64,000 bases of DNA from Squalus acanthias (Eukaryota), in contig CM059432.1 in NCBI GenBank assembly GCA_030390025.1, positions 1,240,001 through 1,304,000 of the forward strand, read 5' to 3'. Of the stretch, positions 1 to 60,466 are shown piece by piece (the first letter of the stretch is position 1; the number at the start of each line of letters is the position of its first letter). Both the position numbers and the translations under genes were made by a program. Below the pieces are notes generated by a model. That model saw only the letters and a list, made by a program, of their open reading frames with translations. It did no database searches and was not told where the DNA came from.

Positions 1-3000
1 ATATACAGCCTGGGGGATATGGGGGTCTATATACAGTGCGTGGGACATGGGTCTATATACAGTCTGGGGGATATGGGGGTCCATATACAGTGCGGGATAT
101 GGGAGTCTATATACAGTGTGGGGATATGGGGGTCTATATACAGTGTGGGGATATGGGGGTCTATATACAGTGTGAGGGATATGGGGGTCTATATACAGTA
201 TGGGGATATGGGGGTCTATATACAGTGTGGGGGATATGGGGGTCTATATACAGTGTGGGGGATATGGGGGTCTATATACAGTGTGGGGGATATGGGGGTC
301 TATATACAGTGTGGGGGATATGGGGGTCTATATACAGTGGGGGGATATGGGGGTCTATATACAGTGTGGGGGATATGGGGGTCTATATACAGTATGGGGA
401 TATGGGGGTCTATATACAGTGTGCGGGATATGGGGGTCTATATACAGTGTGGGGGATATGGGGGTCTATATACAGTGTGTGGGGGATATGGGGGTCTATA
501 TACAGTGTGGGGGGATATGGGGGTCTATATACAGTGTGGGGGATATGGGGGTCTATATACAGTGTGGGGGATATGGGGGTCTATATACAGTCTGGGGATA
601 TGGGGGTCTATATACAGTGCGTGGGACATGGGTCTATATACAGTGTGGGGGATATGGGGGTCTATATACAGTGTGGGGGATATGGGGGTCTATATACAGT
701 GTGGGGGATATGGGGGTCTATATACAGTGTGGGGGATATGGGGGTCTATATACAGTGTGAGGGGGATATGGGGGTCTATATACAGTGTGAGGGCGATATG
801 CGGGTCTATATACAGTGTGGGGGATATGCGGGTCTATATACAGTGTGGGGGATATGGGGGTCTATATACAGTGTGGGGATATGGGGGGCTATATGCAGTG
901 TGGGGATATGGGAGTATATACAGTGTGTGGGGGATATGCGGGTCTATATACAGTGTGGGGGATATGGGGGTCTATATGCAGTGTGGGGATATGGGAGTAT
1001 ATACAGTGTGTGGGGGATATGCGGGTCTATATACAGTGTGGGGATATGGGGGTCTATATACAGTGTGGGGGATATGGGGGTCTATATACAGTGTGGGGGA
1101 TATGGGGGTCTATATACAGTGTGGGGATATGCGGGTCTATATACAGTGTGGGGATATGGGGGTCTATATACAGTGTGGGGGATATGGGGGTCTATATACA
1201 GTGTGGGGGATATGCGGGTCTATATACAGTGTGGGGATATGGGGGGCTATATGCAGTGTGGGGATATGCGAGTATATACAGTGTGTGGGGGATATGCGGG
1301 TCTATATACAGTGTGGGGGATATGGGGGTCTATATACAGTGTGTGGGGATATGGGGGTCTATATACAGTGTGTGGGGGATATGGGGGTCTATATACAGTG
1401 TGTGGGGGATATGGGGGTCTATATACAGTGTGTGGGGATATGGGAGTCTATATACAGTGTGGGGGATATGGGGGTCTATATACAGTGTGAGGGGGATCTG
1501 GGGGTCTATATACAGTGTGAGGGGGATATGCGGGTCTATATACAGTGTGGGGGATATGGGGTTCTATATACAGTGTGGGGGATATGGGGGTCTATATACA
1601 GTGTGGGGATATGGGGGTCTATATACAGTGTGGGGGTTAGGGGGTCTATATACAGTGTGGGGGATATGGGGGTCTATATACAGTGTGGGGGATATGGGGG
1701 TCTATATACAGTGTGGGGATATGGGGGTCTATATACAGTGTGGGGGATATGGGGGTCTATATACAGTGTGGGGATATGGGGGTCTATATACAGTGTGGGG
1801 ATATGGGGGTCTATATACAGTGTGGGGGATATGGGGGTCTATATACAGTGTGGGGATATGGGGGTCTATATACAGTGTGGGGATATGGGGGTCTATATAC
1901 AGTGTGGGGGATATGGGGGTCTATATACAGTGTGGGGGATATGGGGGTCTATATACAGTGTGGGGATATGGGGGTCTATATACAGTGTGAGGGGGATATG
2001 GGGGTCTATATACAGTGTGTGGGGGATATGGGGGTCTATATACAGTGTGTGGGGGATATGGGGGTCTATATACAGTGTGGGGATTATGGGGGTCTATATA
2101 CAGTGTGTGTGGGATATGGGGGTCTATATACAGTGGGGGATATGGGGGTCTATATATAGTGTGGGGGATATGGGGGTCTATATACAGTGTGGGGATTATG
2201 GGGGTCTATATACAGTGGGGGATATGGGGGTCTATATACAGTGTGTGGGGGATATGGGGGTCTATATACAGTGTGGGGGATATGGGGTCTATATACAGTG
2301 TGTGGGGGATATGGGGGTCTATATACAGTGTGTGGGGGATATGGGGGTCTATATACAGTGTGGGGGATATGGGGTCTATATACAGTGTGGGGGATATGGG
2401 GGTCTATATACAGTGTGGGGGATATGGGGGTCTATATACAGTGTGGGGGATATGGGGGTCTATATACAGTGTGTGTGGGATATGGGGGTCTATATACAGT
2501 GTATGGGGGTCTATATACAGTGTGTGGAATATGGAGGTCTATATACAGTGTGTGAGGGGGATATGGGGGTCATCATACAGTGTGTGGGGGATATGGGGGT
2601 CTATATACAGTGTGGGGGATATGGGGGTCATCATACAGTGTGTGGGGGATATGGGGGTCTATGTACAGTGTGTGGGGGATATGGGGGTCTATATACAGTG
2701 TGAGGGGGATATGGGGGTCTATATACAGTGGGGGATATGGGGGGCTATATACAGTGGGAGATATGGGAGTCTATATACAGTATGGGGGTCTATATACATT
2801 ATGGGGGTCTATATACATTATGGGGGTAGATATACAGTGTGAGGGGGATATGGGAGTCTATATACAGTGTGAGGGGGATATGGGAGTCTATATACAGTGT
2901 GAGGGGGATATGGGAGTCTATATACAGTGTGAGGGGGATATGGGAGTCTATATACAGTGTGAGGGGGATATGGGAGTCTATATACAGTGTGAGGGGGATA

Positions 3001-5160
3001 TGGGGGTCTATATACAGTGCGGGGATATGGGGGTCTATATACAGTATGAGGGGGATATGGGAGTCTATATACAGTGTGGGGGATATGGGGGTCTATATAC
3101 AGTGTGAGGGGGATATGGGGGTCTATATACAGTGTGGGGATATGGGGGTCTATATACAGTGTGAGGGGGATATGGGAGTCTATATACAGTGTGGGGGATA
3201 TGGGAGTCTATATACAGTGTGGGGATTATGGGGGCTATATACAGTGTGAGGGGGATATGGGAGTCTATATACAGTGTGAGGGGGATATGGGGGTCTATAT
3301 ACAGTGGGGGATATGGGAGTCTATATACAGTGTGGGGGGATATGGGGGTCTATATACAGTGTGGGGGATATGGGGGTCTATATACAGTGTGGGGGATATG
3401 GGGGGCTATATACTGTGTGGGGGATATGGGAGTCTATATACAGTGTGGGGGATATGGGGGTCTATATACAGTGGGGGATATGGGAGTCTATATACAGTGT
3501 GGGGGGATATGGGGGTCTATATACAGTGTGGGGGATATGGGGGTCTATATACAGTGGGGGATATGGGGGTCTATATACCGTGTGGGGGATATTGGGGTTT
3601 ATATACAGTGGGGGATATGGCGGTCTATATACAGTGTGTGGTGGATATGGGGGTCTATATACAGTGTGTGGGGGATATGGGGGTCTATATACAGTGTGTG
3701 GGGGATATGGGGGTCTATATACAGTGTGGGGATATGGGGGGTCTATATACAGTGTGTGGGGGGATATGGGGGTCTATATACAGTGTGGGGGATATGGGGG
3801 TCTATATACAGTGTGTGGGGGATATGGGGGTCTATATACAGTGTGTGGGGGATATGGGGGTCTATATACAGTGTGGGGGATATGGGGGTCTATATACAGT
3901 GTGTGGGGATATGGGGGTCTATATACAGTGTGGGGGATATGGGGGTCTATATACAGTGTGTGGGGGGATATGGGGGTCTATATACAGTGTGGGGGATATG
4001 GGGGTCTATATACAGTGTGGGGGATATGGGGGTCTATATACAGTGTGGGGGGATATGGGGGTCTATATACAGTGTGGGGATATGGGGGTCTATATACAGT
4101 GTGGGGGATATGGGGGTCTATATACAGTGTGGGGATATGGGGGTCTATATACAGTGTGGGGATATGGGGGTCTATATACAGTGTGGGGGATATGGGGGTC
4201 TATATACAGTGTGGGGATATGGGGGTCTATATACAGTGTGTGGATATGGGGGTCTATATACAGTGGGGGATATGGGGTCTATATACTGTGTGGGGGATAT
4301 GGGGTCTATATAAAGTGTGGGGGTATATGGGGGTCTATATACGGTGTGGGGGGATATGGGGGTCTATATACTGTGTGGGGGATATGGGGTCTATATACTG
4401 TGTGGGGGATATGGGGTCTATATAAAGTGTGGGGGTATATGGGGGTCTATATACGGTGTGGGGGGATATGGGGGTCTATATACAGTGTGAGGGGGATATG
4501 GGGGTCTATATACAGTGTGAGGGGAATATGGGGGTCTATATACAGTGTGGGGGATATGGGGTCTATATACTGTGTGGGGGATATGGGGTCTATATAAAGT
4601 GTGGGGGTATATGGGGGTCTATATACGGTGTGGGGGGATATGGGGGTCTATATACTGTGTGGGGGATATGGGGGTCTATATACAGTGTGGGGGATATGGG
4701 GGTCTATATACTGTGTGGGGGATATGGGGTCTATATAAAGTGTGGGGGTATATGGGGGTCTATATACTGTGTGGGGGATATGGGGGTCTATGTACAGTGT
4801 GGGGGATATGGGGGTCTATATACTGTGTGGGGGATATGGGGTCTATATAAAGTGTGGGGGTATATGGGGGTCTATGTACGGTGTGGGGGGATATGGGGGT
4901 CTACATACTGTGTGGGGGGATAGGGGGGTCTATATACAGTTTGTGGGGGATATGGGGGTCTATATACAGTGTGTGGGGATTATGGGGGTCTACATACTGT
5001 GTGGGGGGATAGGGGGGTCTATATACAGTTTGTGGGGGATATGGGGGTCTATATACAGTGCGAGGGATATGGGGGTCTACATACAGTGTGAGGGGGATAT
5101 GGGGGTCTCTATGCAGCGTGGGGGGATATGGGGGTCTATATGCAGCGTTGGGATATGGCA
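1..5160. repeat. G-rich minisatellite, ~26-30 bp unit, consensus GGGGGATATGGGGGTCTATATACAGTGT; runs off the left edge of the window
   Basis: The unit is directly visible tandemly for >5 kb, with G-run and TG-dinucleotide length variants, and degenerates after ~4900. Confidence 0.98.
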
Positions 5161-6945: not shown

Positions 6946-9860
6946 GTATGTGCATTTGAAAGTCGTCCTGAGCGCACTTGGCCATGAGTCATGCTTCCTA
7001 TGACATAGTAATGACAAGTCAAAGGCAGTGATTAAATATTTGTGCTCCAGAACAGATTTTTCAGAAAATCATTGCAAACTTATTTTGGCTGTTCTTTGTT
7101 GGTGCTGTTGCTTATTTAATAGTATTAATTCAACCTTGTTTTTCTCTGGGAAGGTGGAGATCACCAAAGTTGTGGACTTTCCCAAGGCTATTAGAGATAC
7201 TGAAAGAAAAATAAATTAAAGTAAGGGCTCTAGTTTAGAGTAAGTAGTGTTTAAAGTGAAGTAAGGTCCCTAGTGTATTTAATATTCTTTAATTTAAAGG
7301 AAGTAAAGGGAGTAAGTTAAGGTTAGGACATGGCAGGGCAGCTCGGCAGTGTGGAGTGCTCCTCCTGTGCTATGTGGGAAGTCGGACACTTTCGGTGTCC
7401 AGGGCGAACACGTGCAGGAAGTGTCTCCAGCTGCAGCTACTCGAAATCCGCGTTTCGGAGCTGGAGCTGCAGCTGGAGTCACTGTGGAGCATCCGCGAAG
7501 CTGAGATCTTCGTGGATAGCACGTTTGACGAGGTGGTCACACCGCAGGTAAAGAGTGCACAGGCAGACAGGGAATAGGTGACCGCCAGACAGAGTAAAAG
7601 AACTAGGAAGGTAGTGCAGGAGTCCCCTGGGTCCATCTCCCTCTCCAACAGATTTTCCGTTTTGGATACTGCTGGGGGAGATGGTTTCTCAGGGGAATGC
7701 AGCAAGAGCCAAGTCCGTGGCACTACGAGTGGCTCAGCTGCACAGGAGGGGAGGAAAAAGAGTGGGAGAGCAATAGTGATGGGGGATTCTATCGTAAGGG
7801 GAACAGATAGACGTTTCTGTGGCCGCAGACGTGACTCCAGGATGGTATGTTGCCTCCCTGGTGCCAGGGTCAAGGATGTCACTGAACGGCTGCAGGGCAT
7901 TCTGAAGGGGGAGGACGAACAGTCAGAGGTCGTGGTTCACATTGGTACCAACGACATAGGTAGAAAGAGGGATGAGGTCCTGCAACAAGAATTTAGGGAG
8001 CTAGGTAGCAGATTAAAAAGCAGGACCTCAAAGGTTGTAATCTCTGGATTACTCCCGGTGCCACGTGCCAGTGGGTATAGGAATAGGAGGATAGAGCAGA
8101 TGAATGCGTGGCTAAAGAGTTGGTGCAGGAGGGAGGGCTTTAGTTTCCTGGATCACTGGGTCTGCTTCTGGGGAAGGTGGGACCTGTACAAGTCGGATGG
8201 GTTGCACCTGAACCGGAACGGGACCAACATCCTTGTGGGGAGGTTTGCTAGTACTGTTTGGGGGGGGTTTAAACTAACTTGGCAGGGGGATGGGATACGG
8301 AGTGGAGCTATAGTAGGGGGTGATGCACAGCCAAATATAGAGGAAAAAACAAGTCAGCCTGGAAGGCAGAGCAAATACGTAACGGCACAAGGGAGTATGG
8401 CAAGGCTGGTTGGCATTTATTTTAATGCAAGGAATCTTGCGAGTAAGGCAGATGAATTGAAGGTGTTGATGAACACATGGGAGTATGATATTGTTGCTAT
8501 CACAGAGACATGGTTGAGGGAGGGGCAGGACTGGCAGCTCAATATTCCGGGGTATAGAATCTTCAGGCGAGACAGAAGGGGGTGTAAAAGAGGAGGGGGT
8601 GTCGCAATATTAATCAAGGAGTCAATTACTGCTGTAAGGAGGGATGATATCTTAGCAGGTTCCTCTAATGAGGCCATATGGGTAGAACTTAAAAACAAAA
8701 AGGGGGCAAGCACTTTGCTGGGAGTGTACTATAGACCCTCAAACAGTCAGGGGGAGATAGAGGAACAGATATGTAGGCAAATCTCAGAGAAGTGTAGAAA
8801 TAATAGGGTAATAATAGTAGGGGATTTCAACTTCCCCAATATTAACTGGGATAGTCAGAGTGTGAAAGGCTTAGAGGGTGCAGAATTCTTAAAGTGCATC
8901 CAGGAGAGCTTTTTAATCAGCATATAGAAAGTCCTACAAGTGAGGGGGCGGTACTGGACCTAATTCTAGGGAATGTAGCCGGGCAAGTGTTAGAAGTGTC
9001 AGTGACCATAATTCGGTGAGATTTAATGTAGTCATGGAATAGGACAAAGATGGACCGGAAATAAAGGTTCTAAATTGGGGGAAGGCCGATTTTAATATGA
9101 TAAGGCAGGATCTGGCCAAAGTGGATTGGGATAAGCTACTTGTAGGAAAATCCACATCAGAGCAGTGAGAGTCTTTCAGAAAGGAAATAGAGAGAGTACA
9201 ATGCCAACATGTTCCCGTAAAGGTCAAGGGTGGGACCAATAAGCCCAGGGAACCCTGGATGTCAAGGGATATACAAGAATGGATTAGGAAAAAAAGGGAG
9301 GCTTTTGGCAGATACAAAGGACTAAAAACAGTGGAAGCCCTAGAGGAGTATAGAAAGTGCAGGGGGGTACTTAAAAAAGAAATTAGGAGAGCGAAGAGGG
9401 GGCATGAAAAAACACTGGCAGGCAAAATAAAGGAAAATCCCAAGGTGTTTTATAAGTATATTAAGGGCAAGAGGATAACCAGGGAAAGAGTAGGGCCCAT
9501 TAGGGACCAAAGTGGCAATCTGTGTGTGGAGCCGGAAGATGTGGGTGAGGTTTTAAATGAATATTTTGCATCTGTGTTCACTATGGAGAAGGACGATGTA
9601 GGCATAGAAATCAGGCAGGGGGATTGTGATATACTTGAACAAATTAGTATTGAGAGGGAGGAGGTACTAGCGGTTTTAGCGGGCTTAAAAGTGGATAAAT
9701 CCCCAGGCCCAGACGAGATGTATCCCAGACTGCTGTGTGAGGCAAGGGAGGAGATTGCAGGGGCTCTGACACAAATTTTCAGAACCTCTCTGGCCACAGG
9801 GGAGGTCAAAATTGAGAGGTCGCACAACACCAGGTTATAGTCCAACAGTTTTATTTGAAA

Positions 9861-28384: not shown

Positions 28385-29445
28385 AACTACTGAAGATGCT
28401 GGAAATCTGAAAACAACAGAAAATGCTGGATTCACTCAACAGGTCAGGCAGCATCGTGGAGAGAGAAACAGAGTCAACATTTCAGGTCGATAACCCTTCA
28501 TCAGAACTAGAAAAAGTAGGGGCAAGGAAAGGGAGGAAAGAACAAAGGGAAGGTCTGTGATAGGCTGGAAGGCTGTCGAGATTAAAAGACAAAAAGGGAT
28601 GATGGTGCAAGGCAAAAGGAGATGGCAATGGGACAAATTAAGAAACAAAAGATGACTCTAGGTGAGATGTAAATGGCAATGGCAGAATCATTAACAGCTG
28701 CCATGTGAGAGAAAAAAATATAGGGGCTGAAATTATAGTCTGAAATTGTTGAACTTGATGTTGAGTCCAGAAGACTGTAAAGTGCCTTATCAAAAGATGA
28801 GGTGCTGTTCCTCGAGCTTACGTTGAGCTTCGTTGGAACAGTGTAAGAGGCCGAGGACGGAGCGATCAGAGTGGGAGTGGAGCGGAGAATTAAAGTGACA
28901 GGCAACCGGAAGCTTGGGATCGCGCTTACGGACTGAACGGAGGTGTTCCGCAAAGTGGTCACCCAATCTGCGTTTGGTCTCCCCAATGTAGAGCAGATCA
29001 CATCGTGAGCAGTGAATACAGTATACTAAATTGCAAGAAGTACAAGTAAATCGTTGTTTCACCTGGAAGGAGTGTTTGGGGCCCTGGACAGTGGGAAGGG
29101 AAGAGGTAAAACGGCAGGTGTTGCATCTCCTGCTCTTGCACGGGCAGGTGCCGTGGGAAGGGGAAGGGGTGTTGAGGGTGATGGAGGAGTGGACCAGGGT
29201 GTTGCGGAGGGCGCGGTCCCTTTGGAATGCTGAAAGGGGAGGGGAGGGGAAGATGTGTTTGGTGGTGGGATCACGCTGGAGATGGCGGAGGATGATCCGT
29301 TGAATGTGGAGGCTGGTGGGGTGAAAGGAGAGGACAAGTGGAACCCTATTGTGGTTCTGGAAAGGAGGGGAAGGGGTGAGAGCAGAAGTGCGGGAAATGG
29401 AATAGACACGGTCGAGGGTCATGTCAACCATGGTAGAGGGGAATC
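28385..29445 (-). mobile_element. 5'-truncated Penelope-like element: Cys-rich linker + GIY-YIG endonuclease + 3' pLTR
   Basis: ORF 28790-29430: RVPLVLSFHP...CPCKSRRCNTC...NLVYCIHCSRCDLLYIGETKRRLGDHFAEH...HFN...RKLEEQHLIF. Confidence 0.92.
28472..28508 (-). ncRNA. Minimal hammerhead ribozyme-like motif in Penelope pLTR
   Basis: Minus strand reads AGTT-CTGATGA-A-GGGT-TATCG-ACCT-GAAA-TG-TT-GACT. Confidence 0.6.
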
Positions 29446-29446
29446 G

Positions 29447-32400
29447 AAACATAGAAGATAGGAGCAGGAGTAGGCCATTTGGCCCCTCGAGCCTGATCCG
29501 CCATTTAATGAGATCATGGCTGATCATCCAAATTCAGTACCCTGTCCCTGCTTTCTCCCCATATCCCTTGATCCCTTTAGCCTTAAGAAATATATCTAAC
29601 TCCTTCTTGAATATATTTAATGAATTGGCCTCAACTGCCTTCTGTGGTAAAGAATTCCACAGGTTCACCACTCTCTGGGTGAAGAAATTCCTCCTCATCT
29701 CAGTCCTAAATGGCTTACCCCTTATCCTTAGACTGTGACCCCTGGTTCTGGACTCCCCCGCCATCGGGAACATCCTTCCTGCATCTAGTCTGTCTGGTCC
29801 TGTTAGAATTTTATAAGTTTCAATGAGATCCCCTCTCATTCTTCTAAACTCTAGCGAATACAAGCCCAATCGTCCCAATCTCTCTTCATACCTCATTCCT
29901 GCCATCCCAGGTATCAGTCTGGTGAATCTTCGCTGCACTCCCTCCATGGCAAGAACATCCTTCCTCAGATAAGGCAACCAAAACTGCACACAATATTCAA
30001 GGTGTGGTCTCACCAAGGCCCTGTACAACTGCCGCAAGACATCCTTGCTCCTGTACTCGAATCCTCTCGCTATGAAGGCCAACATACCATTTGCCTTCTT
30101 AACTGCCTGCTGCACCTGCATGCTTACCTTCAGCGACTGGTGCACAAGGACTCCCAGGTCTCGTTGCACTTCCCCTTTTCCCAATCTATTGCTGTTCAGA
30201 TAATAATCTGCCTTCCTGTTTTTGCCACCAAAGTGGATAACCTCGCATTTATCCACATTATACTGCATCTGCCCAATCACCCAACCTGTCCAAATCATAC
30301 TGGAGTTTCTCTGCATCCTCCTCACGACACACACGCCCACCCAGCTTTGTGTCATCTGCAAACTTGGAGATATTACATCTAGCTCCCTCGTCTAGATCAT
30401 TAATATATATTGTGAATAACTGGGATCCTAGCACCGATCCCTGCGGTACCCCACTAGTCACTGCCTTCCACTTGGAAAAAGACCCGTTTATTCCAACTCT
30501 TTGCTTCCTGTCTGCCAACCAGTTCTCTATCCAAGTCAGTACCTTACCCCCAATCCCATGTGCTTTAACTTTGCACGCTAATCTCTTTTGCGGGACCTTA
30601 TCGAAAGCCTTTTGAAAGTCCAAATACACCACATCCACTGGTTCTCCCTTATCTATTCTACCAGTTACATCCTCAAAAAATTCCAGTAGATTAGTCAAGC
30701 ATGATTTACCTTTTGTAAATCCATGTTGACTTTGTCCGATCCTGTCACTGTTTTCCAAGTGCTCTGCTATTACATCTTTTATAATGGACTCTAGCATTTT
30801 CCCCACTACCGATGTCAGGCTTACCGGTCTATAATTCCCCATTTTCTCTCTCCCACCTTTTTTAAATAGTGGGGTTACATTAGCTACCCTCCAATCCATG
30901 GGAACTGTTCCAGAGTCTATAGAATTTTAGAAGATGACCAGCAATGCATCTACTATTTCTAGGACCACTTCCTTAAGTACCCTAGGATGTAGATTATCAG
31001 GCCCTGGGGATTTATTGGCCTTCAATCCCATCAATTTCCCTAACACCATTTCCCTACAAATACTGATTTCATTCAGTTCCTCCCTCTCATTGGACCCTAT
31101 GTTCCCCGACATCTCTGGGAGGTTATTTGTGTCCTCCTTTGTGAAGACAGAACCAAAGTATGTATTTAATTGGTCTGCCATTTCTTTGTTCCCCATTATA
31201 AATTCCCCTGATTCTGACTGCAAGGGACCTACGCTTGACTTCACCAATCTTTTTCTCTTCACATATCTATAGAAGCTTTTACAGTCAGTTTTTATGTTAC
31301 CTGCAAGCTTACTCTCATAGTCTATTTTCCCCCTCTTAATTAATCCCTTTGTCCTCCTTTGCTGAATCCTAAACTGCTCCCAATCCTCAGGCTTGCTGCT
31401 TTTTCTGGCCAATTTATATGTCCTCTCCTTGGATCTTATGCTATCCCTAATTTCCCTTGTTAGCCACGGTTGAGTCACCTTTTTTGTTTTATTTTTATGC
31501 CAAACAGGGATGAACAAATTCTGTAGTTCATCCATTGAATCTTTAAATGTTTGCCATTGCCTATCCACCGTCAACCCTTTAAGTAACATTCCCCAATCCA
31601 TCCTAGTCAACTCGCGCCTCATACCATCGTAGTTTGCTTTATTTAAATTCAGGACCCTAGTCTCTGAGTCAACTACTTCACTCTCCATCTTAATGAAGAA
31701 TTCTATCATATTATGATCGCTCCTCCCCAAGGGGCCTCGCACAACAAGATTGCTAATTAATCCTTTCTCATTACATAATACGCAGACTAAGATGGCCTGA
31801 TATCTAATTGGTTCCTCGACATAATTGGTCCAGGAAACCATCCCGTATACACTCTAGGAATTCCTCCTCCACAGTATTGTTACTAATTTGGTTAGCCCAA
31901 TCTATATGTAGATTAAAGTCACCCATGATAACTGCTGTGCCCTTATTGCACGCATCTCTAATTTCCCGTTTAATGCCATCCCCAACCTCAGCATTACTGT
32001 TTGGGGGTCTGTATACAACTGCCACTAACGTTTTCTGCCCCTTGGTATTTCTCAGCTCTACCCATACAGATTCCACATCATCAGAGCTAATATCTTTCCT
32101 TACTATTGTGTTAATCTCCTCTTTAACCAGCAATGCTACCCCACCTCCTTTTCCTTTTTGCCTGTCTTTCCTGAATATTGAATACCCCTGGATGTTGAAT
32201 TCCCAGCCTTGGTCATCCTGGAGCCATGTCTTCGTAATCCCAATTATATCATATCCGTTTACATCTATTTGCGCAGCTAATTCATCCACCTTATTACGAA
32301 TGCTCCTCGCATTAAGACACAAAGCCTTCAAGCTTGTTTTTTTAACACTCTTAGACCTTTTAGAATTATTAATTACTGTGGCCATGTTTGATTTACACCC

Positions 32401-32855
32401 TTGATTTCTCTGCCTTCCACTTTTGCTTTTCTCCTTCCTGTCTTTTGCTTCTATCCTTGCTTCCCTTTCCTCTGTCTCCCTGCACAGGTTCCCAACCCCC
32501 TGCCATTTTAGTTTAAACCCTCCCCAACAGCACTAGCAAACACTCCCCCTAGGACATCGGTCCCGGTCCCGCCCAGGTGCAAACCGTCCAGTTTGTACTG
32601 GTCCCACCTCCCCCAGAACCGGTTCCAATGTCCCAGGAATTTGAATCCCTCCCCCTTGCACCATTCCTCTAGCCCCGTATTCATCTGAAATATCCTTCTA
32701 TTTCTACTCTGACTAGCACGTGGCACTGGTAGCAATCCTCTTATTAATACCTTTGAGGCCCTATTTTTTAATTTACCTCCTAACTCCCTATATTCAGCTT
32801 TTAGGACCTCATCCTGGTTTTTACCTATATCGTTGGTACCTATATGCACCAATAT
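29447..32855 (-). mobile_element. CR1 LINE (copy B), truncated within the ORF1 esterase; ORF2 APE+RT nearly intact
   Basis: ORF1 end VHIGTND...DGLHL...GEGLN* (32508-32861); ORF2 pieces 31804-32385, 30927-31841, 30258-30899 and 29534-30361. Confidence 0.95.
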
Positions 32856-40905: not shown

Positions 40906-41684
40906 ATACTAGCTAATTGAAACCATATAATGTTGTGGTCACTGTTGGGCAGATGTTTCCCCAGTTGTTCATGGAAGCCAGATAAGAGGTCAGGCTCACT
41001 ACTAAATACTAGATCCAATAGATGATTATCCCTAGTTACTTCATTAACATGTTGAGTTAGGAAACAGTCTTGTATATTTTCAACAAATGTTTCAGCTGCA
41101 CTTCCCATCACAACAGAGGGTAAACCATCGTGCCACTGACTGCCAAGAAAATTAAACTCACCCATCAAACAAAGGTGGCGTTTTATATTAAAAGCATTTG
41201 CAATCTGTTTCCATAATAACTCATGTTCAGGTGTCTGACCCGGGTGCCTATAACAATTACCGATAATTAATCCCTGCCCGTGAGCTTGCTCCACTTGAAC
41301 CCAGATAACCTCAGCTGTACTTGATGAGGCAATATCAATTCTTTCTCTAGCTGTTAGATTCTCACTGATAAAAATAGCAACCCCTCCTCCCCTTTGACCT
41401 ACTCTATCCTTTCTGAATCCCTTTAGGTGAATTTCTGTCCCATCACTTTAGTCTAGCCATGTCTCAGAAATACACAATATGTCTAATTTCTCCAACACAA
41501 CGTAGGATTGCAGTTCTCATAATTTGTTTCTAACACTCCTTTCATTTACATAAAAATAATTTAAAGGTCTCTCATCTAACTTCTTAGTTATTTATTTTTG
41601 TATGCATTCTACCTGGTTTAATGGCATGCTTAGAATCTATGTAATTATCAAGGTCAGTAAGGCTATCTTTAAACATATCCAACA

Positions 41685-42094
41685 GGAACGGTAGCATAGT
41701 GGTTATGTTATTGGACGAGTAATCCAGAGGCCTGGACTAATGATCCGGAGACATGAGTTCAATTCCCACCATGTGGAATTTAAATTAAATAAATCTGGAA
41801 TAAAAAGCTAGTATCAGTAATGGTGACCATGAAACTATCGGATTGTCGTAAAAACTTATCTGGTTAAGTAATGTCCTTTAGGTAATTTGCCACCCTTACC
41901 CAGTCTGGCCTATAAGTGACTCTAGACCCACAGCAATGTGATTGACTCTTAACTGACCTCTGAAATTGCTGAACAAGCCACTCAGTATCAAACCGCTAGG
42001 AAAACACCTCACGGACTGAAACTCGAGGGCAATTAAGGATGGGCAATAAATGCTGGCATTGCCAGCGACGCCCACACCCAGTGAATAAAAAAAA
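41685..42094 (+). mobile_element. tRNA-derived SINE sharing its 3' tail with the LINE at 43640-45065
   Basis: A-box-like GGTAGCATAGTGG, B-box-like GAGTTCAATTCCC, tail GGGCAATTAAGGATGGGCAATAAATGCTGG...GACGCCCACA...AAAAAAAA. Confidence 0.85.
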
Positions 42095-43639
42095 TCTGCA
42101 CTATCCTCTTGCTGAATTAGTTTAAATGCTTTCTGAAAGCATGCTCAACACCATCTGCCGTCCCTCCATCTTAACAACTTACTTTGTCCAGCGAACACAT
42201 CCCAATTATCGATGAAGTGGAGCTTCTTTTTGCAAAAGGTCCCGAAGCCAGATGTTGAATCCTACGATTTGGCTAATCCTCTCCAGTGATCTGAACATGC
42301 CCAGAGACTACTACCTTTGCACCCCTTTGCTGAAGGTCAGCTATGAGGCCTTTGTAGGAATCCTGTAAAACAAATGGATTTCTATTCATTATATCATTAG
42401 TATCAATATGTAAACCTACTACAGTACCTTGGCACTCACCTTTGATCAGATCATCCACACGGTCCTGGAGATCAGCTACCTTGGCCCCTGGAAGATAAAC
42501 GACTGCTCTTGACAGAGCCTTACCTCTATCGAGGGTGCTATCTGTACGCCTGATGATGGAGTCCCCTATAAGGATTGCACGCTGCCTCTTGCTCTTCCTT
42601 GGCTGTTCACCCAACGATGTCTTCTTGGACTTTGCAGCTTTTCCCTCACCTTTTCCAATATGTTGATATGAGCATTGAGGTTGATCAGTGTCACTGGTGC
42701 TGACCTCACTGCCTGTTGCATCCTCCACATCAAGAAGCAGGGCATACTTATTTGGAGCAACAAAAGAATCCAGAGTGGTGAAAAATCCAGTCATATCAAT
42801 GCCAGACAATGATGACTGACTTTTCGTCCCAGTCAGGAAGTCATCGAAATCCACCAAGTATGTTAATTGGTCAATCTTCTCTTTTAAGCAACCGATCTCC
42901 TGCTGCAGAGACAAAACCTGAACACATTTAGTGCAAGTGAAAGCCCCAGAACTGGGGGCCATCAATATAAGATGGTCACTAATAAATCCACTAAGGAATT
43001 CAGGAGAAACTTCTTTACCCGGAGAGTGGTGTGAATGTGGAACTTGCTACCACAGGGAGTGGTTGAGGCAAATAGCACAGATGCCTTTAAAGGGAAGCTG
43101 GATAAGTATAAGAGGAAGAAAGAATAGAAGGATATGCTGATACGGTTCGATGGAGTCAGGTGGGAGGAGGTTTCTGTGGAGCATAAACACTGGCATAGAC
43201 CTGTTGGGCCAAATGGCCTGTTTCTGCACTGTAAATTCTACGTTCTGTAATATTACAAGAGGAGAAGAATGGAATGTGATCTAGAGTATGTTTCAACATG
43301 TGCATTCATGTTGAATTTAGCTTGAATTATATTAACGTACTTAGTTTTTGGTATCAATGCAATATGAAGAAAGCATTCTGAAAGTTATTTGTACAATGCA
43401 TAATTTAAAAAATACTTTCTATAAGGAATGCAGTTATCCTTTCTAGTTTCTTTCACAGAAAAGTGAATATATATTTAAAGTTCTTGAAATACACTGGCCC
43501 AGAATTTCCTCAGTGATTTATATTGCTGTTGCACCTGTAAAAAAAGGAAAAACTTTTACATTCACCACTGATCTCTAGAAGGAGATACATGGAAGTTTCC
43601 TGAATTTGCTTACTTGTATATCTGTTGATGCAAGCATTA

Positions 43640-50800: not shown

Positions 50801-52523
50801 AAAGATCACCCATTGTTACGTTACAGTTTTTCCTGTCGGTCTTTGGTTCCATTTTACCCTGACTAGATCCTTTTGCATCCCATTGAAGTTAGCGCTATTC
50901 CAGTTTAGAAGTTCCACTCTAGATTGTTCCTTGCTCCTCTCCAATGCTAATCTAAATCTTATGATACGATGATCACTCGTACCCAAGTGTTCTCCCACAG
51001 ACACTTGGTCGACCTGGCCCACCTCATTCCCCAGCACCAGATCCAGCAATGCCTCCTTCCTAGTTGGGCTAAGAACATACTGGTCAAGGAAATTCTCTTG
51101 AACACATTTCAGAAATTCCTCCCCCTCCTTTCCCTTTACCCTAGCATTATCCCAATCAATATTTGGGTAACTAAAGTCCCCCAATATCACCACTCTATAG
51201 CTCTTGCATATCTCTGTGATTTCCCTGCAGATTGGCTCCTCTGCCTCCCTCTCACTATTTGGAGGCCTGTAGAATACCCCCAATAGCGTGATCATACCCT
51301 TTTTGCTCCTCAGCTCTAACCAAATGGATTCTGTCCTTGTCCCCTCAAGATCATCCTCCCTTTCCAACACTATAATGTCTTCCTTAATCAGCACTGCCAC
51401 CCACCTCCCTTTTTTGCTTCCCTATCTTTTCTGAACACCTTGTACCCTTGAATATTAAGTGCCCAGTCCTCACCGTTTTTAAGCCACGTTTCCGATATTG
51501 CCACACGGCTAATTGTGCTTGTAGCTCACCAACCTTATTCACCAAACTTTGTGCGTTTACATACATGCATTCTAAACCCATTTTTGAATTTTTCGTAGTC
51601 TTTCTTAGTCTGTTCCTATCTAATATGGCACTACTTCCGCCTCCAGCACTACCTTCCCCTCCAGTACCATCCAACACACTCACTCTTCCATGCACCCCAT
51701 TCCTTCCCTCCACTCCTACAAGCTGGTGCCCATCCCCTGCTAAGCTAGTTTAAACCCTCCCCAACAACACTAGCAAACCTCCCCGCGAGAATATTGGTCC
51801 TGGCTCTGTTGAGGTGTAACCCGTCTGGCTTGTAAAGGTCCCACCTTCCCCAGAAATGGTCCCAATGCCTCGGGAATCTAAAGCCCATCTCCTGCACCAT
51901 CTCTCCAGCCACGCATTCATCTGTTCTATCCTCCTATTCCTGTACTCACTAGCACGTGGCACCGGGAGTAATCCAGAGATTACTACCTTTGTGGTCCTGC
52001 TTTTTAATCTCTTTCCTAGCTCCATATAGTCTGCCTGCAGACCCTCATCCCTCTTTCTGCCTATGTCGTTGGTACCGATATGGACAACGACCTCTGGCTG
52101 TTCACCCTCCATCCTCAGAGTGTCCTGCAGCCGCTCAGTGACATCCTTGACCCTGGCACAGGGAGGCAACATACCATCCTGGAGTCACGTCTGCGTCCAC
52201 AGAAACGCCTATCTGTTCCCCTAACCAATGAATCCCCTATCACTATTGCTCTTCCACTGTTCTTCCTCCCCCCCCCATGTGCAGCTGAGCCACCCGTGGT
52301 GCCGTGGCCTTGGCTCTGGCTGCTCTCCCCAGAGGAGACATCACCCCCACCAGTTTCCAGAACTGTGAACCGGTTAGCGAGCGAGATGCACTCTGGAGAT
52401 TCCTGCCCTACCTGCCTGGTCCTCCTTCTCTGGTGGTCACCCATTCCCTCTCTGCCTGCACATTCTGAGGCTGCGGGGTGACCACTTCTAGAAACGTGCT
52501 TTCCAAGTATTTCTCAGCCTCAC
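47900..52523 (-). mobile_element. Near full-length CR1 LINE (copy D), split by a MITE
   Basis: ORF1 esterase (IGDSLVRG, VHIGTND) at 51750-52444; APE at 50816-51713; RT at 48089-49794. Confidence 0.93.
49741..50622. mobile_element. Non-autonomous Harbinger-type DNA transposon
   Basis: Perfect 16-bp TIRs GGGGGAAAAATTCAGT / ACTGAATTTTTCCCCC and 3-bp TSD ATT (49738-40, 50623-25). Excision restores the CR1 ORF2 reading NQTKYNKFRGEV. Confidence 0.88.
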
Positions 52524-54632: not shown

Positions 54633-54779
54633 ATTCACCCCCACTGTGCTGTTTAGTGTATAAGTATAGTGGACTACTGTGAATAAAGGTGTATTATGTT
54701 GATGAAAATTATTACTATTGGCTCTTTAGTTTACTCTAACTAAAACTACTTTTACTTCTTTCTTTACAAATCATAATAG

Positions 54780-57700
54780 CTGTAAATATTGATGGGAAGG
54801 CACACCGACCAAGCTCCGATGATCAAAATGTAAAATCACTGTCTAAGGATTCTTCACTTATTAATCAGGAAGTTATGTCTAAAATTCTTTGTGAGAAAAC
54901 CCCTTCTGTTCGTCATGAAGCCGTACCTTGTCCATCTCTGCCTATGATTAAGGATCCTTCTGTACATCAAGAAGTTGCACCCACTCCAAATCAAACCTTC
55001 CCTCATCAAGAAGCTGTATCTGGTCCACATGAGAATTTCCCTAGGGCACCATATGTTCGTCATGAAGCTGTACCTGTTCCATACGAACCTATGATTAGGG
55101 CACCATATGTTCGTCATGAAGCAGTACCTATTCCGTATGAGTCTTTGGCTAGGGCTCCATATTATCAAGAAGTCGTACCTGCTCCATATGACCCTTACAT
55201 CAGGGCTCCATATTATCAAGAAGCCATACCTGCTTCATTTGAGCCTGTGATTGTAGCCCCAGCTATTCGTCCAGAACCTATTCCTGTTCCTATTCCATAT
55301 GAAACTGTGATTATGACTCAGCCTCTTCGTCAAGCACCTGTGCCTGCTGCATATGATTACAGGATTAAAAGTTCTCCTGTTCGTCAGGAGGTTTTACGTT
55401 CCCCGTATGACGCAAGTTCATCGCCTGGTCATCAAGGAACTGTACCTACTGCAAGTGACACCAAGTCCCTGTCTGTTTGTCCACCAGCTGCACCTTCTCA
55501 ACATGAGAGTCTGTCCTCGCCTACTCGTACTGAACCAATACCTGTTACTTATAGCAGTAAAACCTCAGAGGTTCGTCAGGAATCTGTACGGGTTAAATCC
55601 CCACCTGCTCTTCAAGAATGTTCATCTTCTCAATTTGAAAGAAAGTCCCCGATTATTTTCCAACAAGCAATGGCACCTCAATATCAGTCCCCACCTGTTT
55701 ATTCACAACCTATACCATCTCCATTTGAGCCTATACCTCCATCTTACTATCAAGGGGTACCTACTCAATATGCAAATATGGCTCCAGTTGTTTACCAGCC
55801 CATATCACCTCAATACACCGCTAGGTCCCCTCCTCTTTATCAACCAACAACAGCTTCTCAATACGAAAATAAGTACCCATTAATTGGTCAACAAACAGTA
55901 CCTGCTCAGTATGAAACTTTTTCTCGGCCAATTGAGGATAAGTCTGTTTATCAACTAGCTCCAGGTGAGACTTTAATATGTACATCTGTTCCACAAGAAA
56001 GTGTGAGGCTTCCATCACCTATTCCATATGAGGGTTTGAAGATAAGTCCCTCTGTTCGTCAAGAAAATCCACCTGCTGCAAGTGGCGAGATCTTATCTGT
56101 TTGTCAAGACCATTCATGTGATCAATGTAAGAAGGTCCCATCTACTCATCAAGATAAACTGGCTCCATGTGGCGATGTGTCATCTGTTTGCCAAGACCAG
56201 CCATGTGATCTCTGTAAGAAGGCTCACTCTACTGCTCAAGATAAACCGGCTCCATGTGGCAATGTCTCAACTGTTTGTCAAGACCATTCGTGTGATCAGT
56301 GTAAGAAGGCCCAATCTACTTCTCAAGATAAACTGGCACTAAGTAGCGATGTCTCATCTGTTTGTCAAGAACATTCATGTGATCAATGTAAGAAGAAATC
56401 ATCTCGTCAAAAGTTATCGGCTGCTCCAAGTGGTGATGTCTCAACTGTATGCGAAGAACATTCATGTGATCAATGTAAGAAGAAGTCATCTCGTCAACAG
56501 TTATCGGCTGCTCCAAGTGGCGATGTCTCAACTGTATGCGAAGAACATTCATGTGATCAATGTAAGAAGAAGTCATCTCGTCAACAGTTATCGGCTGCTC
56601 CAAGTGGCGATGTCTCAACTGTATGCGAAGAACATTCATGTGATCAATGTAAGAAGAAGTCATCTACTCGTTTACAGTTATCGTCTGCTCCAAGTGGCGA
56701 TGTCTCAACTGTTTGCGAAGAACATTCATGTGATCAATGTAAGAAGTCGTCATCTACCTGTCAAGAGTTCTCATCTGCTCCAAGTGGTGATCTCTCAACT
56801 GGTTGTCAAGATCCTTCATGTGATCAATGTAAGAAGAAGTCATCTACCTGTCAAGAGGTCTCGTCTGCTCCAAGTGGTGATCTCCCAACTGTTTGCGAAG
56901 AACATTCTTGTGATCAATGTAAGAAGAAGTCATCTACCTGTCAAGAGGTCTCGTCTGCTCCAAGTGGTGATCTCCCAACTGTTTGCGAAGAACATTCTTG
57001 TGATCAATGTAAGAAGAAGTCATCTACCTGTCAAGAGGTCTCGTCTGCTCCAAGTGGTGATCTCTCAACTGTTTGCGAAGAACATTCTTGTGATCAATGT
57101 AAGAAGAAGTCATCTACCTGTCAAGAGGTCTCGTCTGCTCCAAGTGGTGATCTCTCAACTGTTTGCGAAGAACATTCTTGTGATCAATGTAAGAAGAAGT
57201 CATCAACCTGTCAAGAGGTCTCGTCTGCTCCAAGTGGTGATCTCCCAACTGTTTGCGAAGAACATTCATGTGATCAATGTAAGAAGAAGTCATCAACCTG
57301 TCAAGAGGTCTCGTCTGCTCCAAGTGGCGATGTCTCAATTGTATGCGAAGAACATTCATGTGATCAATGTAAGAAGAAGTCATCTACTCGTCAACAGTTA
57401 TCGGCTGCTCCAAGTGGCGATGTCTCAATTGTATGCGAAGAACATTCATGCGATCAATGTAAGAAGAAGTCATCTACTCGTTTACAGTTCTCGTCTGCTC
57501 CAAGTGGTGATCTCTCATCTGTTTGTCAGGACCATTCATGTGATCAATGTAAGAAGGAGTCATCTACCTGTCCACGATTCTTGTCTGCTCCAAGTGGTGA
57601 TCTCTCAACTAGTTGTCAAGAAGAGTCATGTAATCAATGCACTAAGTCGTCATCTACCTGTCTAATGTTCTTTTCTGCTCCAAGTGGTGATCTCTCATCT

Positions 57701-60466
57701 GGTTGTCAAGACGAGTCATGTGATCAATGCAATAAGGAGTCATCTACCTGTCAGCAGTTCTCGTCTGCTCCAAGTGGTGATCTCTCAACTGGTTGTCAAG
57801 AAGAGTCATGTGATCAATGTCGGAAGAAGTCATCTACCTGTCAGCAGTTCTCGTCTGCTCCAAGTGGTAGTCTCTCAACTGGTTGTCAAGAAGAGTCATG
57901 TGATCAATGTCGGAAGAAGTCATCTACCAATCAACAGTTCTCGTCTGCTCCGAGTGGTGATCTCTCATCCGGTTGTCAAGAAGAGTCATGTGATCAATGT
58001 CGGAAGAAGTCATCTACCAATCAACAGTTCTCGTCTGCTCCAAGTGGTGATCTCTCAACTGGTTGTCAAGAAGAGTCATGTAATCAATGTAGGAAGAAGT
58101 CATCTACCTGTCAACCGTTTTCATCTGCTCCAAGTGGTGATCTCTCATCTGGTTGCGAAGACCATTCATGTGATCAATGTAAGAAGAAGTCATCTACCTG
58201 TCAACAGTTTTCATCTGCTCCAAGTGGTGATCTGTCTTCTGGCTGTCAGGACCCTTCATGTGATCAATGTAGCAGGACGTCATCTGCCTGTCAACAGTTT
58301 TCATCTGCTCCAAGTGGTGATCTCTCAACTGGCTGTCAAGACCCTTCATGTGATCAATGTAAGAAGAAGTCATCTACCTGTCAACAGTTCTCGTCTGCTC
58401 CAAGTGGTGATCTCTCAACTGGCTGTCAAGACCCTTCATGTGATCAATGTAAGAAGAAGTCATCTACCTGTCAACAGTTCTCGTCTGCTCCAAGTGGTGA
58501 TCTCTCAACTGGCTGTCAAGACCCTTCATGTGATCAATGTAAGAAGAAGTCATCTACCTGTCAACAGTTCTCGTCTGCTCCAAGTGGTGATCTCTCAACT
58601 GGCTGTCAAGACCCTTCATGTGATCAATGTAAGAAGAAGTCATCTACCTGTCAACAGTTCTCGTCTGCTCCAAGTGGTGATCTCTCAACTGGCTGTCAAG
58701 ACCATTCATGTGATCAATGTAGGAAGGTGTCGTCTACTCGTCAAGAGTCTTCATCTGGTCCAAGTGCCAATGCCTCATCTAACTGTCAAGACCATTCATG
58801 TGATCAATGTAGGAAGGTGTCGTCTACTCGTCAAGAGTCTTCATCTGGTCCAAGTGCCAATGCCTCATCTAACTGTCAAGACCATTCATGTGATCAATGT
58901 AGGAAGGTGTCGTCTACTCGTCAAGAGTCTTCATCTGGTCCAAGTGCCAATGCCTCATCTAACTGTCAAGACCATTCATGTGATCAATGTAGGAAGGTGT
59001 CGTCTACTCGTCAAGAGTCTTCATCTGGTCCAAGTGCCAATGCCTCATCTAACTGTCAAGACCATTCATGTGATCAATGTAGGAAGGTGTCGTCTACTCG
59101 TCAAGAGTCTTCATCTGGTCCAAGTGCCAATGCCTCATCTAACTGTCAAGACCATTCATGTGATCAATGTAGGAAGGTGTCGTCTACTCGTCAAGAGTCT
59201 TCATCTGGTCCAAGTGCCAATGCCTCATCTGGTTGTCAAGACCATTCATGTGATCAATGTAGGAAGGTGTCGTCTACTCGTCAAGAGTTCTCGTCTGGTG
59301 CCAGTGCCTCATCTGGTTGTCAAGACCATTCATGTGATCAATGTAGGAAGGTGTCATCGACTCGTCAAGATTATTCTACTGCTCCAAGTGGCGATCTCTC
59401 AACTACTTGTCAAGACCATTCATGTGATCAATGTCGGAAGGTGTCATCTACTCGTCAAGATTATTCGACTGGTCCAAGTGCCAATGCCTCATCTAGTTGT
59501 CAGGATCATTCATGTGATCAATGTAGGAAGGTGTCATCTACCCGTCAAGATTATTCGACTGCTCCAAGTACCAATGCCTCATCTAGTTGTCAGGATCATT
59601 CATGTGATCAATGTAGGAAGGTGTCATCTACTCGTCAAGATTATTCAACTGCTCCAAGTACCAATGCCTCATCTAGTTGTCAGGACCATTCATGTGATCA
59701 ATGTAGGAATGTGTCATCTACTCATCAAGATTATTCATCTGCTCCAAGTGGCAGTGTCTCATTTGGTTGTCAAGATCCTTCATGTGCTCAATGCAAGAAG
59801 GCATCATCGACTCCAATTAGCGATATCTCATCTGCTGGTCAAGAGCATTCATGTGATTATTGTAGGAAGGACTCATCTCAAGAATCTAAACCATGTGGGG
59901 TCTGTGAAAAATGTACCCAAAAAGCCTCTCGTGAAAGTCCCCAAGACCCCCAGGCTCCTACATTGCAATGTTTGTATAAGGCTCCATCATCTGCATATGG
60001 TGCACAGGACAATGCGTCTTCAGATCCATCAACAACATTTAGTCCACAGAATAGTGTGTGTAAGGCCCCACCCTTTAATCAAGGAAGTCCTGATGGAGGT
60101 CATTCTGACACATTACCCACCAATAAGCCCATTTTCATGCACCTTTCCACAAAATGTTGCATTGTGAACTATAGTGATTCATCAACTTGCCTTGAACCTG
60201 TAATCGTATACCATGAATCTACAATTCAGAGAGTATCAGAAATTCACTTGAAGGATGAACCTGATGCTAAAGATGCTGGTGTATGTTCTGCTGAGGATGC
60301 TGCATCAAAAGACAAAAAAGCTGAGGCAGCCTCACCTGCTCCTCCATCTGAAGAAGATACATCTTGTCATAGCTCTACAGATTCTGTATGTGGGAGATCA
60401 GAAGGAGATGCACAGGAAAAATCATCCACTGGTGAAGCAGATGCTGGTAAGGAAGATGCAAATTAG
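54780..60466 (+). CDS. CABYR: Giant third coding exon of the CABYR-like gene: Pro/Tyr-rich repeats, ~42 Cys/His-rich 30-aa repeats, acidic C-terminus
   Basis: Uninterrupted 5.7 kb ORF. A pyrimidine-rich acceptor ending TAG at 54777-79 gives phase 1 (G+CT=Ala), then 31 open codons in frame with the ATG at 54875. It ends at TAG 60464-66 or at the donor CTG|GTAAGG (60446/7). Linkage to the D/D exons is inferred from phase and strand. Confidence 0.8.
56090..59870 (+). repeat. Coding tandem repeat, 90-bp unit (some 84-87 bp), ~42-43 copies
   Basis: Consensus SSAPSGDLSTGCQDHSCDQCKKKSSTCQQF; length changes preserve the reading frame. Confidence 0.97.

Follow-up and report, generated by a model that had tools for sequence, protein, structure and literature searches.

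CR1 elements in the window

The window, a stretch of 64,000 nucleotides (1240001-1304000 of contig CM059432.1) in the 3.7-Gb genome of Squalus acanthias, contains four CR1 LINE copies that retain the ORF1/ORF2 junction, here called A to D. The named proteins nearest to their ORF1 come from sharks and rays. The sequence TTTAAACTAR occurs exactly four times in the window, at 8268 on the forward strand and at 32517, 42126 and 51754 on the reverse strand; 100 shuffles gave a mean of 0.29 occurrences and a maximum of 2. All four sites are junctions between an SGNH-esterase ORF1 and an ORF2 that encodes an APE endonuclease and a reverse transcriptase (RT), as assigned by Pfam and tblastn. This agrees with a preliminary description of this DNA, made from the letters alone, which had placed a heptamer at these four positions.

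Copy B lies on the reverse strand. It retains the 3' part of ORF1 (32508..32851; Pfam accession PF13472; tblastn match 32858-32511), which ends in GLN and the TAA stop at 32510-32508. The copy is 5'-truncated inside ORF1 at 32851, where homology to a family copy stops, and is 96% identical to the genomic locus L308 over 29443-32851. The slippery heptamer U_UUA_AAC, in the phase of ORF1, occupies 32511..32517 and is the predicted shift site. Five codons upstream, with no ATG between, a TAG (32533..32535) closes the -1 frame and bounds the window in which a shift could occur. The G-tract GGGGGTTGGG (32491..32500), a candidate stimulator, starts 11 nt 3' of the heptamer and supplies the Gly at -1 frame codon 7. 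A linker that is open in the -1 frame and evolves fast (32314..32510), with a polymorphic ATG at 32385, leads into ORF2 and the 3' end of the element (29443..32313; APE, Pfam accession PF03372, and RT), decayed after 31807. The -1 frame of copy B is open for 237 codons in all. It had been described as open for 42 codons straight into the APE domain; it is indeed open toward APE, but 42 codons reach only the ATG at 32385, and the APE Asn motif lies at codon 69 (32313).

The other three copies are disturbed at or near the junction. In copy A (heptamer, TAA and G-tract at 8268..8294, forward strand), the G-run ahead of the heptamer exceeds that of in-phase copies by one base, which fuses ORF1 and ORF2 in frame and leaves the heptamer out of the ORF1 phase. 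The esterase frame continues into ORF2 within one open reading frame (7578-8927), and both tblastn matches lie in frame 3. Copy C (heptamer, TAA and degraded G-tract at 42100..42126, reverse strand) belongs to an old, divergent family and is split 22 nt past the stop by a 416-nt insertion (42094-41679). Copy D (heptamer, TAG and a G-tract one G shorter at 51728..51754, reverse strand) carries a copy-specific stop at -1 frame codon 5. The claim that all four copies end ORF1 in NNT TTA AAC TAR therefore stands for B, C and D, which read xLN* in phase with GGT, CAT and GGT before TTA, and fails for the fused copy A. The G-rich tracts downstream in A, B and D lie where they had been reported. All four window copies are decayed and none has the intact layout, so we judged the signal on families.

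Intact elements and their classification

Two intact elements, L315 and L317, combine an ORF1 of 318 aa with 999 open codons from the heptamer. In L315 this 999-aa frame contains APE (PF03372) and RT (Pfam accession PF00078) domains, and ORF1 contains the esterase (PF13472). ORF1 consists of an N-terminal CxxC...CxxC finger, a coiled-coil-like stretch and the SGNH esterase. No protease domain was detected by Pfam. CR1 LINEs end in short tandem repeats rather than poly(A), and the 3' UTR of L314 and L317 is followed by two to three T-rich units of 8 nt. Judged on these sequence features (ORF1 type, APE and RT domains, 3' repeats), the elements classify as CR1 LINEs with a type IVB ORF1. Type IVB ORF1, subgroup CR1_7, is defined in a passage of PMC4120745, and the gene content of such esterase-type vertebrate CR1 elements is the same as here. 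The CR1 rows form a group separate from ZfL2-1-like rows in an ORF1 tree. CR1 is abundant in the genome analysed.

The heptamer is fixed in phase across families

We anchored junction families on the esterase DGLH motif and not on the heptamer. This yielded 240 loci, 190 distinct junctions and 23 clusters, from which we analysed 11 families: the 10 clusters with at least two members and one singleton picked for its intact layout. Among the 12 singletons left out, three have the exact heptamer and stop, two a one-base variant, one an out-of-phase heptamer and six no heptamer before the first stop. The 11 families are mutually related and come from a single genome.

T-TTA-AAC-TAR ends the esterase ORF1 in phase in 11/11 families, with the TAR stop directly adjoining the heptamer. 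The codon preceding TTA AAC is GGT, GAT, GCT or CAT. The terminal Leu is TTA and the terminal Asn is AAC in every family, whereas three other invariant Leu residues in the ORF1 tail are each encoded by 4-5 different codons. The codon fixation from which constraint at the nucleotide level had been proposed in the window copies extends to all 11 families. In families with GGT, an overlapping G_GGU_UUA heptamer is present just ahead of the main one.

Conservation is also evident within families. Among 30 loci each of the A, B and D families, the heptamer is present in 29/30, 30/30 and 28/30, and the -1 frame is open to APE in 27/29, 24/30 and 16/28. For the C family, the majority line of 25/29 other loci is open and Met-free to APE. 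Queries with ORF1 only returned 118 copies; 98 of them carry the heptamer in phase and 9 out of phase, and 11 lack it. APE lies in the -1 frame in 63 of the 78 copies that could be scored; its position in frame 0 (11/78) or +1 (4/78) is read here as copy decay.

The G-run of family A is unstable in length. Its 37 copies comprise 17 fused, 14 in phase, 4 other and 2 unscored, the query itself being fused. On a tree with few resolved branches, the fused copies are scattered among the in-phase ones. Single-copy ORF1-ORF2 fusions occur in other families too. We considered a dedicated readthrough family and rejected it, as the fused query yielded scattered single-copy indels only.

The -1 frame is open and has no conserved start codon

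The -1 frame contains no stop over 47, 52, 55, 57, 66, 68 or 69 codons in 11/11 families, and each of the other frames contains 2-13. Of shuffled linkers, 0.3-3% are free of stops. Openness of this frame and synonymous conservation of the heptamer, which the preliminary description had named as the check to make, both hold in 11/11 families of this genome. The linkers of F4 and F5 differ by 20 non-synonymous and 7 synonymous codon changes. Linker amino acids drift fast, and it is therefore the frame that is conserved rather than the sequence. On the upstream side, a stop lying 5-6 codons ahead of the heptamer closes the -1 frame, with no Met between, in most copies of 10/11 families, the exception being family A (F1), which is disturbed by its G-run.

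No ORF2 AUG is conserved across the 11 families, either upstream or downstream of the heptamer. Three of the 11 are Met-free before the APE Asn, and in F6 the first Met appears at codon 179 in 4/4 open copies. Eight families have a linker Met, at unrelated positions from codon 4 to codon 59. The family B ATG (32385, codon 45) is polymorphic and provides the first Met in 9/18 open copies. Linker stops and a conserved, required ORF2 AUG had been put forward as observations that would speak against frameshifting; both were looked for in the 11 families and neither is present. In 6/11 families, the fourth codon of the -1 frame (GCT, ACT or AAA) is not a near-cognate start. Stop-start coupling of the SART1 type involves a conserved UAAUG overlap or an AUG beside the ORF1 stop. 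A stop-start overlap (TAATG) in the ORF2 frame was found in 1/11 families (F9), a distribution unlike that of SART1-type coupling.

A G-tract and an adjacent stop lie 3' of the heptamer

Canonical -1 frameshift sites usually carry a 3' structure, a pseudoknot or stem-loop 5-9 nt downstream. At the CR1 junction, seven variable bases follow the TAR stop and precede a G-tract, in which GGG at heptamer +19 to +21 is invariant in 11/11 families. RNAalifold found a consensus structure with 0 pairs on 10 sequences, and folding of single sequences gave z values from -2.2 to +1.6, only family B (-2.2) being better than shuffles. We therefore rejected a local hairpin; a pseudoknot is improbable as well, the region being C-poor. 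A G-quadruplex was rejected as well: four GGG tracts within 45 nt occur in 2/11 families, and F4, F5 and F7 have a single tract. Long-range pairing of the G-tract fared no better, as the best partners differ in place across 18 elements and none is common.

A classical pseudoknot is an improbable source of the pause. The adjacent stop and the G-tract ~11 nt downstream are the candidates, and either or both could supply it. The stimulatory motif of arteriviruses is short and lies ~10 nt 3' of the slip site. Arterivirus nsp1beta and PCBP stimulate frameshifting in trans, as stated in a passage of PMC5009743. By analogy, our guess is that a protein-bound G-tract might act as the CR1 stimulator. 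The arterivirus motif is C-rich and directs a -2 shift, whereas the CR1 motif is G-rich, would serve a -1 shift and has a hypothetical binding protein.

ORF1 C-termini in other organisms

We identified 113 homologous ORF1 proteins with a scorable C-terminus, of which 102 end in LN (sharks, rays, frogs, sturgeon, turtles, lizards, a crane and others). The residue before LN takes 13 identities, and a codon ending in T is impossible for it in 2/102, versus 51/102 one position earlier; the tetrapod junctions are known as protein only, not DNA. Seven fused database proteins (one from a ray, four stork gene models and two others) read FKL or KL, and 7/7 have Gly at codon 7. The four stork models have a Met shortly before APE. 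Scans of metagenome, GTDB, viral, plasmid and phage collections returned no CR1 junction DNA of other taxa.

Contigs from four public runs cover the junction (140, 46, 6 and 1 records, mostly 80-95% alike). Over 32509-32518 they list no variant at or above 5%, and the junction is free of indels and joints; the third base of the stop and the flanks vary. These contigs were collected by likeness with rare variants dropped, and three of the four runs are only guessed to be RNA; we therefore use them as supporting evidence only. A longer stretch around the junction gave no shared joint at the junction among the matches listed.

A profile search at the level of 50%-identity representatives added 126 proteins, 95 of them with a scorable tail: 40 end in LN, 10 in GN, 2 in KN, 4 in another xN and 39 do not end in N. 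Most of these distant ORF1s have a similar cysteine-finger, coiled-coil and esterase layout. The residue x before GN is Q in 9/10 and S in 1/10 distinct tails, and Q precedes LN in 0/105. KN, preceded by S, T, R, A or Q, is terminal in 2 and internal in 8 of 15 inspected rows of one clade; where it is internal, ORF1 continues 2-12 codons beyond the motif. Counting only residues that force the third base, pyrimidine- versus purine-ending codons split 34:2 before LN and 0:9 before GN/KN (Fisher p 6e-8, kinship ignored). The residue never contradicts G_GGA_AAC (GN) or A_AAA_AAC (KN). It co-varies as U_UUA_AAC, G_GGA_AAC and A_AAA_AAC would impose, which suggests apparent heptamer swaps, seen at the protein level only. 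A passage of PMC5009743 names four heptamers as the most shifty, and these three are among them. A few further tails end GF-x, which the fourth shifty heptamer, G_GGU_UUU, would fit.

The terminal Asn is absent in a clade of six ZfL2-1-like rows. The solved ZfL2-1 esterase chain stops before the LN columns, although the construct may be trimmed. LN stays terminal even though its distance from the catalytic motif ranges over 26-39 residues. A ZfL2-1-like esterase and a GN-clade ORF1, used as queries against this genome, returned only LN families.

A proposed -1 frameshift and its alternatives

We propose, with a probability of roughly 0.8, that esterase-type CR1 LINEs express ORF2 by programmed -1 frameshifting at U_UUA_AAC, which would yield an ORF1-ORF2 fusion of ~1,315 aa. 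The preliminary description had suggested such frameshifting, and those predictions of a -1 frameshift that were tested on sequence held at the level of families: codons and phase, a stop-free linker, no conserved AUG and apparent heptamer swaps. Most ribosomes would stop one codon past the heptamer and release ORF1p (~318 aa, ending xLN). In a minority, both tRNAs would slip back one base (UUA to UUU, AAC to AAA). The shifted ribosomes would then read the 45-67-codon linker into the endonuclease and reverse transcriptase, producing a gag-pol-like fusion with the junction xLN-L.

Ribosomes might alternatively terminate at the end of ORF1 and resume translation in the -1 frame, either from an AUG in the linker or independently of AUG, with the motif acting as a reinitiation signal. 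L1 ORF2 translation is AUG-independent and may proceed by reinitiation (a passage of PMC11485995), and a linker Met in 8/11 families, the overlap in F9, the Met before APE in four stork models and the constant TAR beside the motif are consistent with this reading. We nevertheless regard it as unlikely: reinitiation would not lead one to expect the exact X_XXY_YYZ phase, the codon fixation, the NNT rule or the GN/KN swaps with matching x, codon 4 is not a near-cognate start in six families, and internal KN motifs are followed by a further 2-12 codons of ORF1. It is also conceivable that the two frames are joined in RNA, by polymerase slippage in G-, U- or A-runs, splicing or editing that adds a base and creates in-frame fusion transcripts. 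The unstable G-run of family A (17 of 37 copies fused) and the single-copy fusions elsewhere point in this direction, but the run is interrupted or absent in other families, and fused and in-phase family A copies are intermixed, albeit on a mostly unresolved tree. The four-run contigs, which drop rare variants and come from three runs guessed to be RNA, also have no indel or joint at the junction, and we judge RNA-level joining very improbable.

Two further readings would detach the motif from ORF2 translation, and we give each almost no weight. If the esterase simply required LN* and TTA/AAC were inherited, common descent of the families could account for their agreement, and the Fisher tests ignore kinship. 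Yet in these families other invariant Leu residues have freely varying codons, LN remains terminal despite the 26-39-residue variation in its distance from the catalytic motif, the (possibly trimmed) ZfL2-1 chain ends before the LN columns and six ZfL2-1-like rows do without LN; ORF2 expression in the Met-less families would also be left unexplained. The motif and G-tract might instead form a non-translational element in cis, for ORF1p binding or packaging, with ORF2 made otherwise. A G-tract that has no structural partner would suit such an element, but a binding site would have no need to keep codon phase with both ORFs or to switch jointly among U, G and A at three positions.

Programmed frameshifting may characterize the whole esterase-type CR1 branch, from sharks to birds and in more distant hosts. 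This wider proposal is tentative, and we lean slightly against it as a whole. It would entail a gag-pol-like fusion by an ancient -1 frameshift, switching of the heptamer among U_UUA_AAC, G_GGA_AAC and A_AAA_AAC, and a stimulator that is no RNA fold but consists of the adjacent stop and a G-tract located where mRNA enters the ribosome, which a protein might recognize; as a whole it would be previously undescribed.

Relation to known systems

The preliminary description had equated the site with the coronavirus heptamer, and a passage of PMC5009743 confirms the same heptamer in the same phase for IBV. As in retroviral gag-pol, a structural ORF would be fused to a polymerase ORF, and the predicted CR1 ratio would likewise be low. 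CR1 differs from viral -1 sites in that no pseudoknot or stem-loop was found, a stop follows the heptamer immediately, the element is a non-LTR retrotransposon and Pfam detects no protease. The earlier contrast with LINEs, whose ORF2s were said to be generally translated by reinitiation or coupling, was correct in outline but slightly too strong. The Dictyostelium APE-type non-LTR elements TRE5-A and TRE3-A require a -1 frameshift for ORF2, according to a statement in the review PMC5911963. The likeness to CR1 rests on that statement and concerns the -1 shift for ORF2; lineage, host and ORF1 differ. Mammalian L1 resembles CR1 in its bicistronic RNA and an ORF2 that needs no AUG (a passage of PMC11485995). 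L1 makes a separate ORF2p past the ORF1 stop, whereas the CR1 ORFs share a short overlap of fixed extent that contains a slippery heptamer.

A full-text literature search, with the founding CR1 papers outside its coverage, found no frameshifting proposal for CR1. The 1997 turtle CR1 paper reportedly described a brief overlap of the ORFs and may have considered frameshifting, and priority is uncertain. The word 'frameshift' has 0 occurrences in the available parts of PMC4120745 and PMC3905857. 'CR1' occurs 0 times in the first 300,000 of the 449,034 characters of PMC5009743, where the non-LTR elements treated are HeT-A and TART. Passages of PMC5006619, PMC11835228, PMC4255032, PMC6609765, PMC8226300 and a bioRxiv 2A paper contain no CR1 frameshift proposal. 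The available supplement of PMC4316615 contained only an unrelated match, near the ORF2 3' end, and those of PMC4120745 contained none.

These observations establish that CR1 LINEs carry a signal of the recoding type that is deeply conserved and would represent a variant of the known -1 frameshift mechanism. The site is a 30-nt signal that makes exact predictions, and a natural -1 site lacking a folded stimulator would be of interest to recoding specialists. The mechanism of L1 ORF2 translation is not fully understood, as a passage of a 2024 review notes (PMC11485995), and in the chicken genome CR1 ranks as the main interspersed repeat, at 11.8% (a passage of PMC11835228). If our proposal is true, the CR1 reverse transcriptase would begin with the ORF1 protein and its esterase, the ratio of ORF1p to ORF2p would be set as in retroviruses, and annotations that seek an AUG to call an 'intact ORF2' would misjudge which copies are competent.

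Variation around the ORF1/ORF2 junction

In the family of CR1 copy A (family A), a pure G-run lies directly 5' of the U_UUA_AAC heptamer, the predicted −1 frameshift site. The length of this run differs among copies, from 7 to 15 nt (window 8256-8267 and genomic loci L031-L060), and many copies are consequently in-frame ORF1-ORF2 fusions. These length differences reflect either recurrent slippage or sequencing error; a clear lineage of fused elements was not found among these same copies.

Database homologues of the esterase ORF1 include a clade (P0348, P0354, P0357, P0362, P0379, P0381, P0383 and P0386) with an internal xKN, which occupies the column where other ORF1s end in GN. ORF1 extends 2-12 codons beyond xKN in this clade, and the overlap would thus be longer. 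Three further ORF1 proteins (P0364, P0389 and P0394) have WGF, LGF or AGF close to the C-terminus. These tails, known from protein alone, would be compatible with a G_GGU_UUU heptamer. The CR1 ORF1 proteins P0005, P0067 and P0162 carry the database labels Pseudomonas aeruginosa, Proteus mirabilis and Protopolystoma xenopodis, which are probably explained by host contamination.

CR1 copy C is split by a 416-nt insertion (window 41679-42094), located 22 nt past the ORF1 stop. Read on the element's strand, the insertion starts with a T-run, as the end of a retroposon in the opposite orientation would.

Other features of the window

A minisatellite with a 28-nt unit (~184 copies, 88% matches) occupies positions 1-5158, where the + strand is strongly G-rich. 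A decayed frame at 28790-29533 (− strand) contains a CxxC/LYIGETKR stretch that resembles a GIY-YIG endonuclease of Penelope-like elements; Pfam gave no match for this frame at E 0.01. At 54740-60466 (+ strand), one reading frame stays open over 1,908 codons, and in it a Pro/Tyr-rich N-terminal part precedes Cys-rich repeats (CxD/ExSCDQC) encoded by ~42 copies of a 90-nt unit. A Pfam search with its product returned no match. The frame looks like one huge exon, encoding what looks like a repetitive structural or metal-binding protein.
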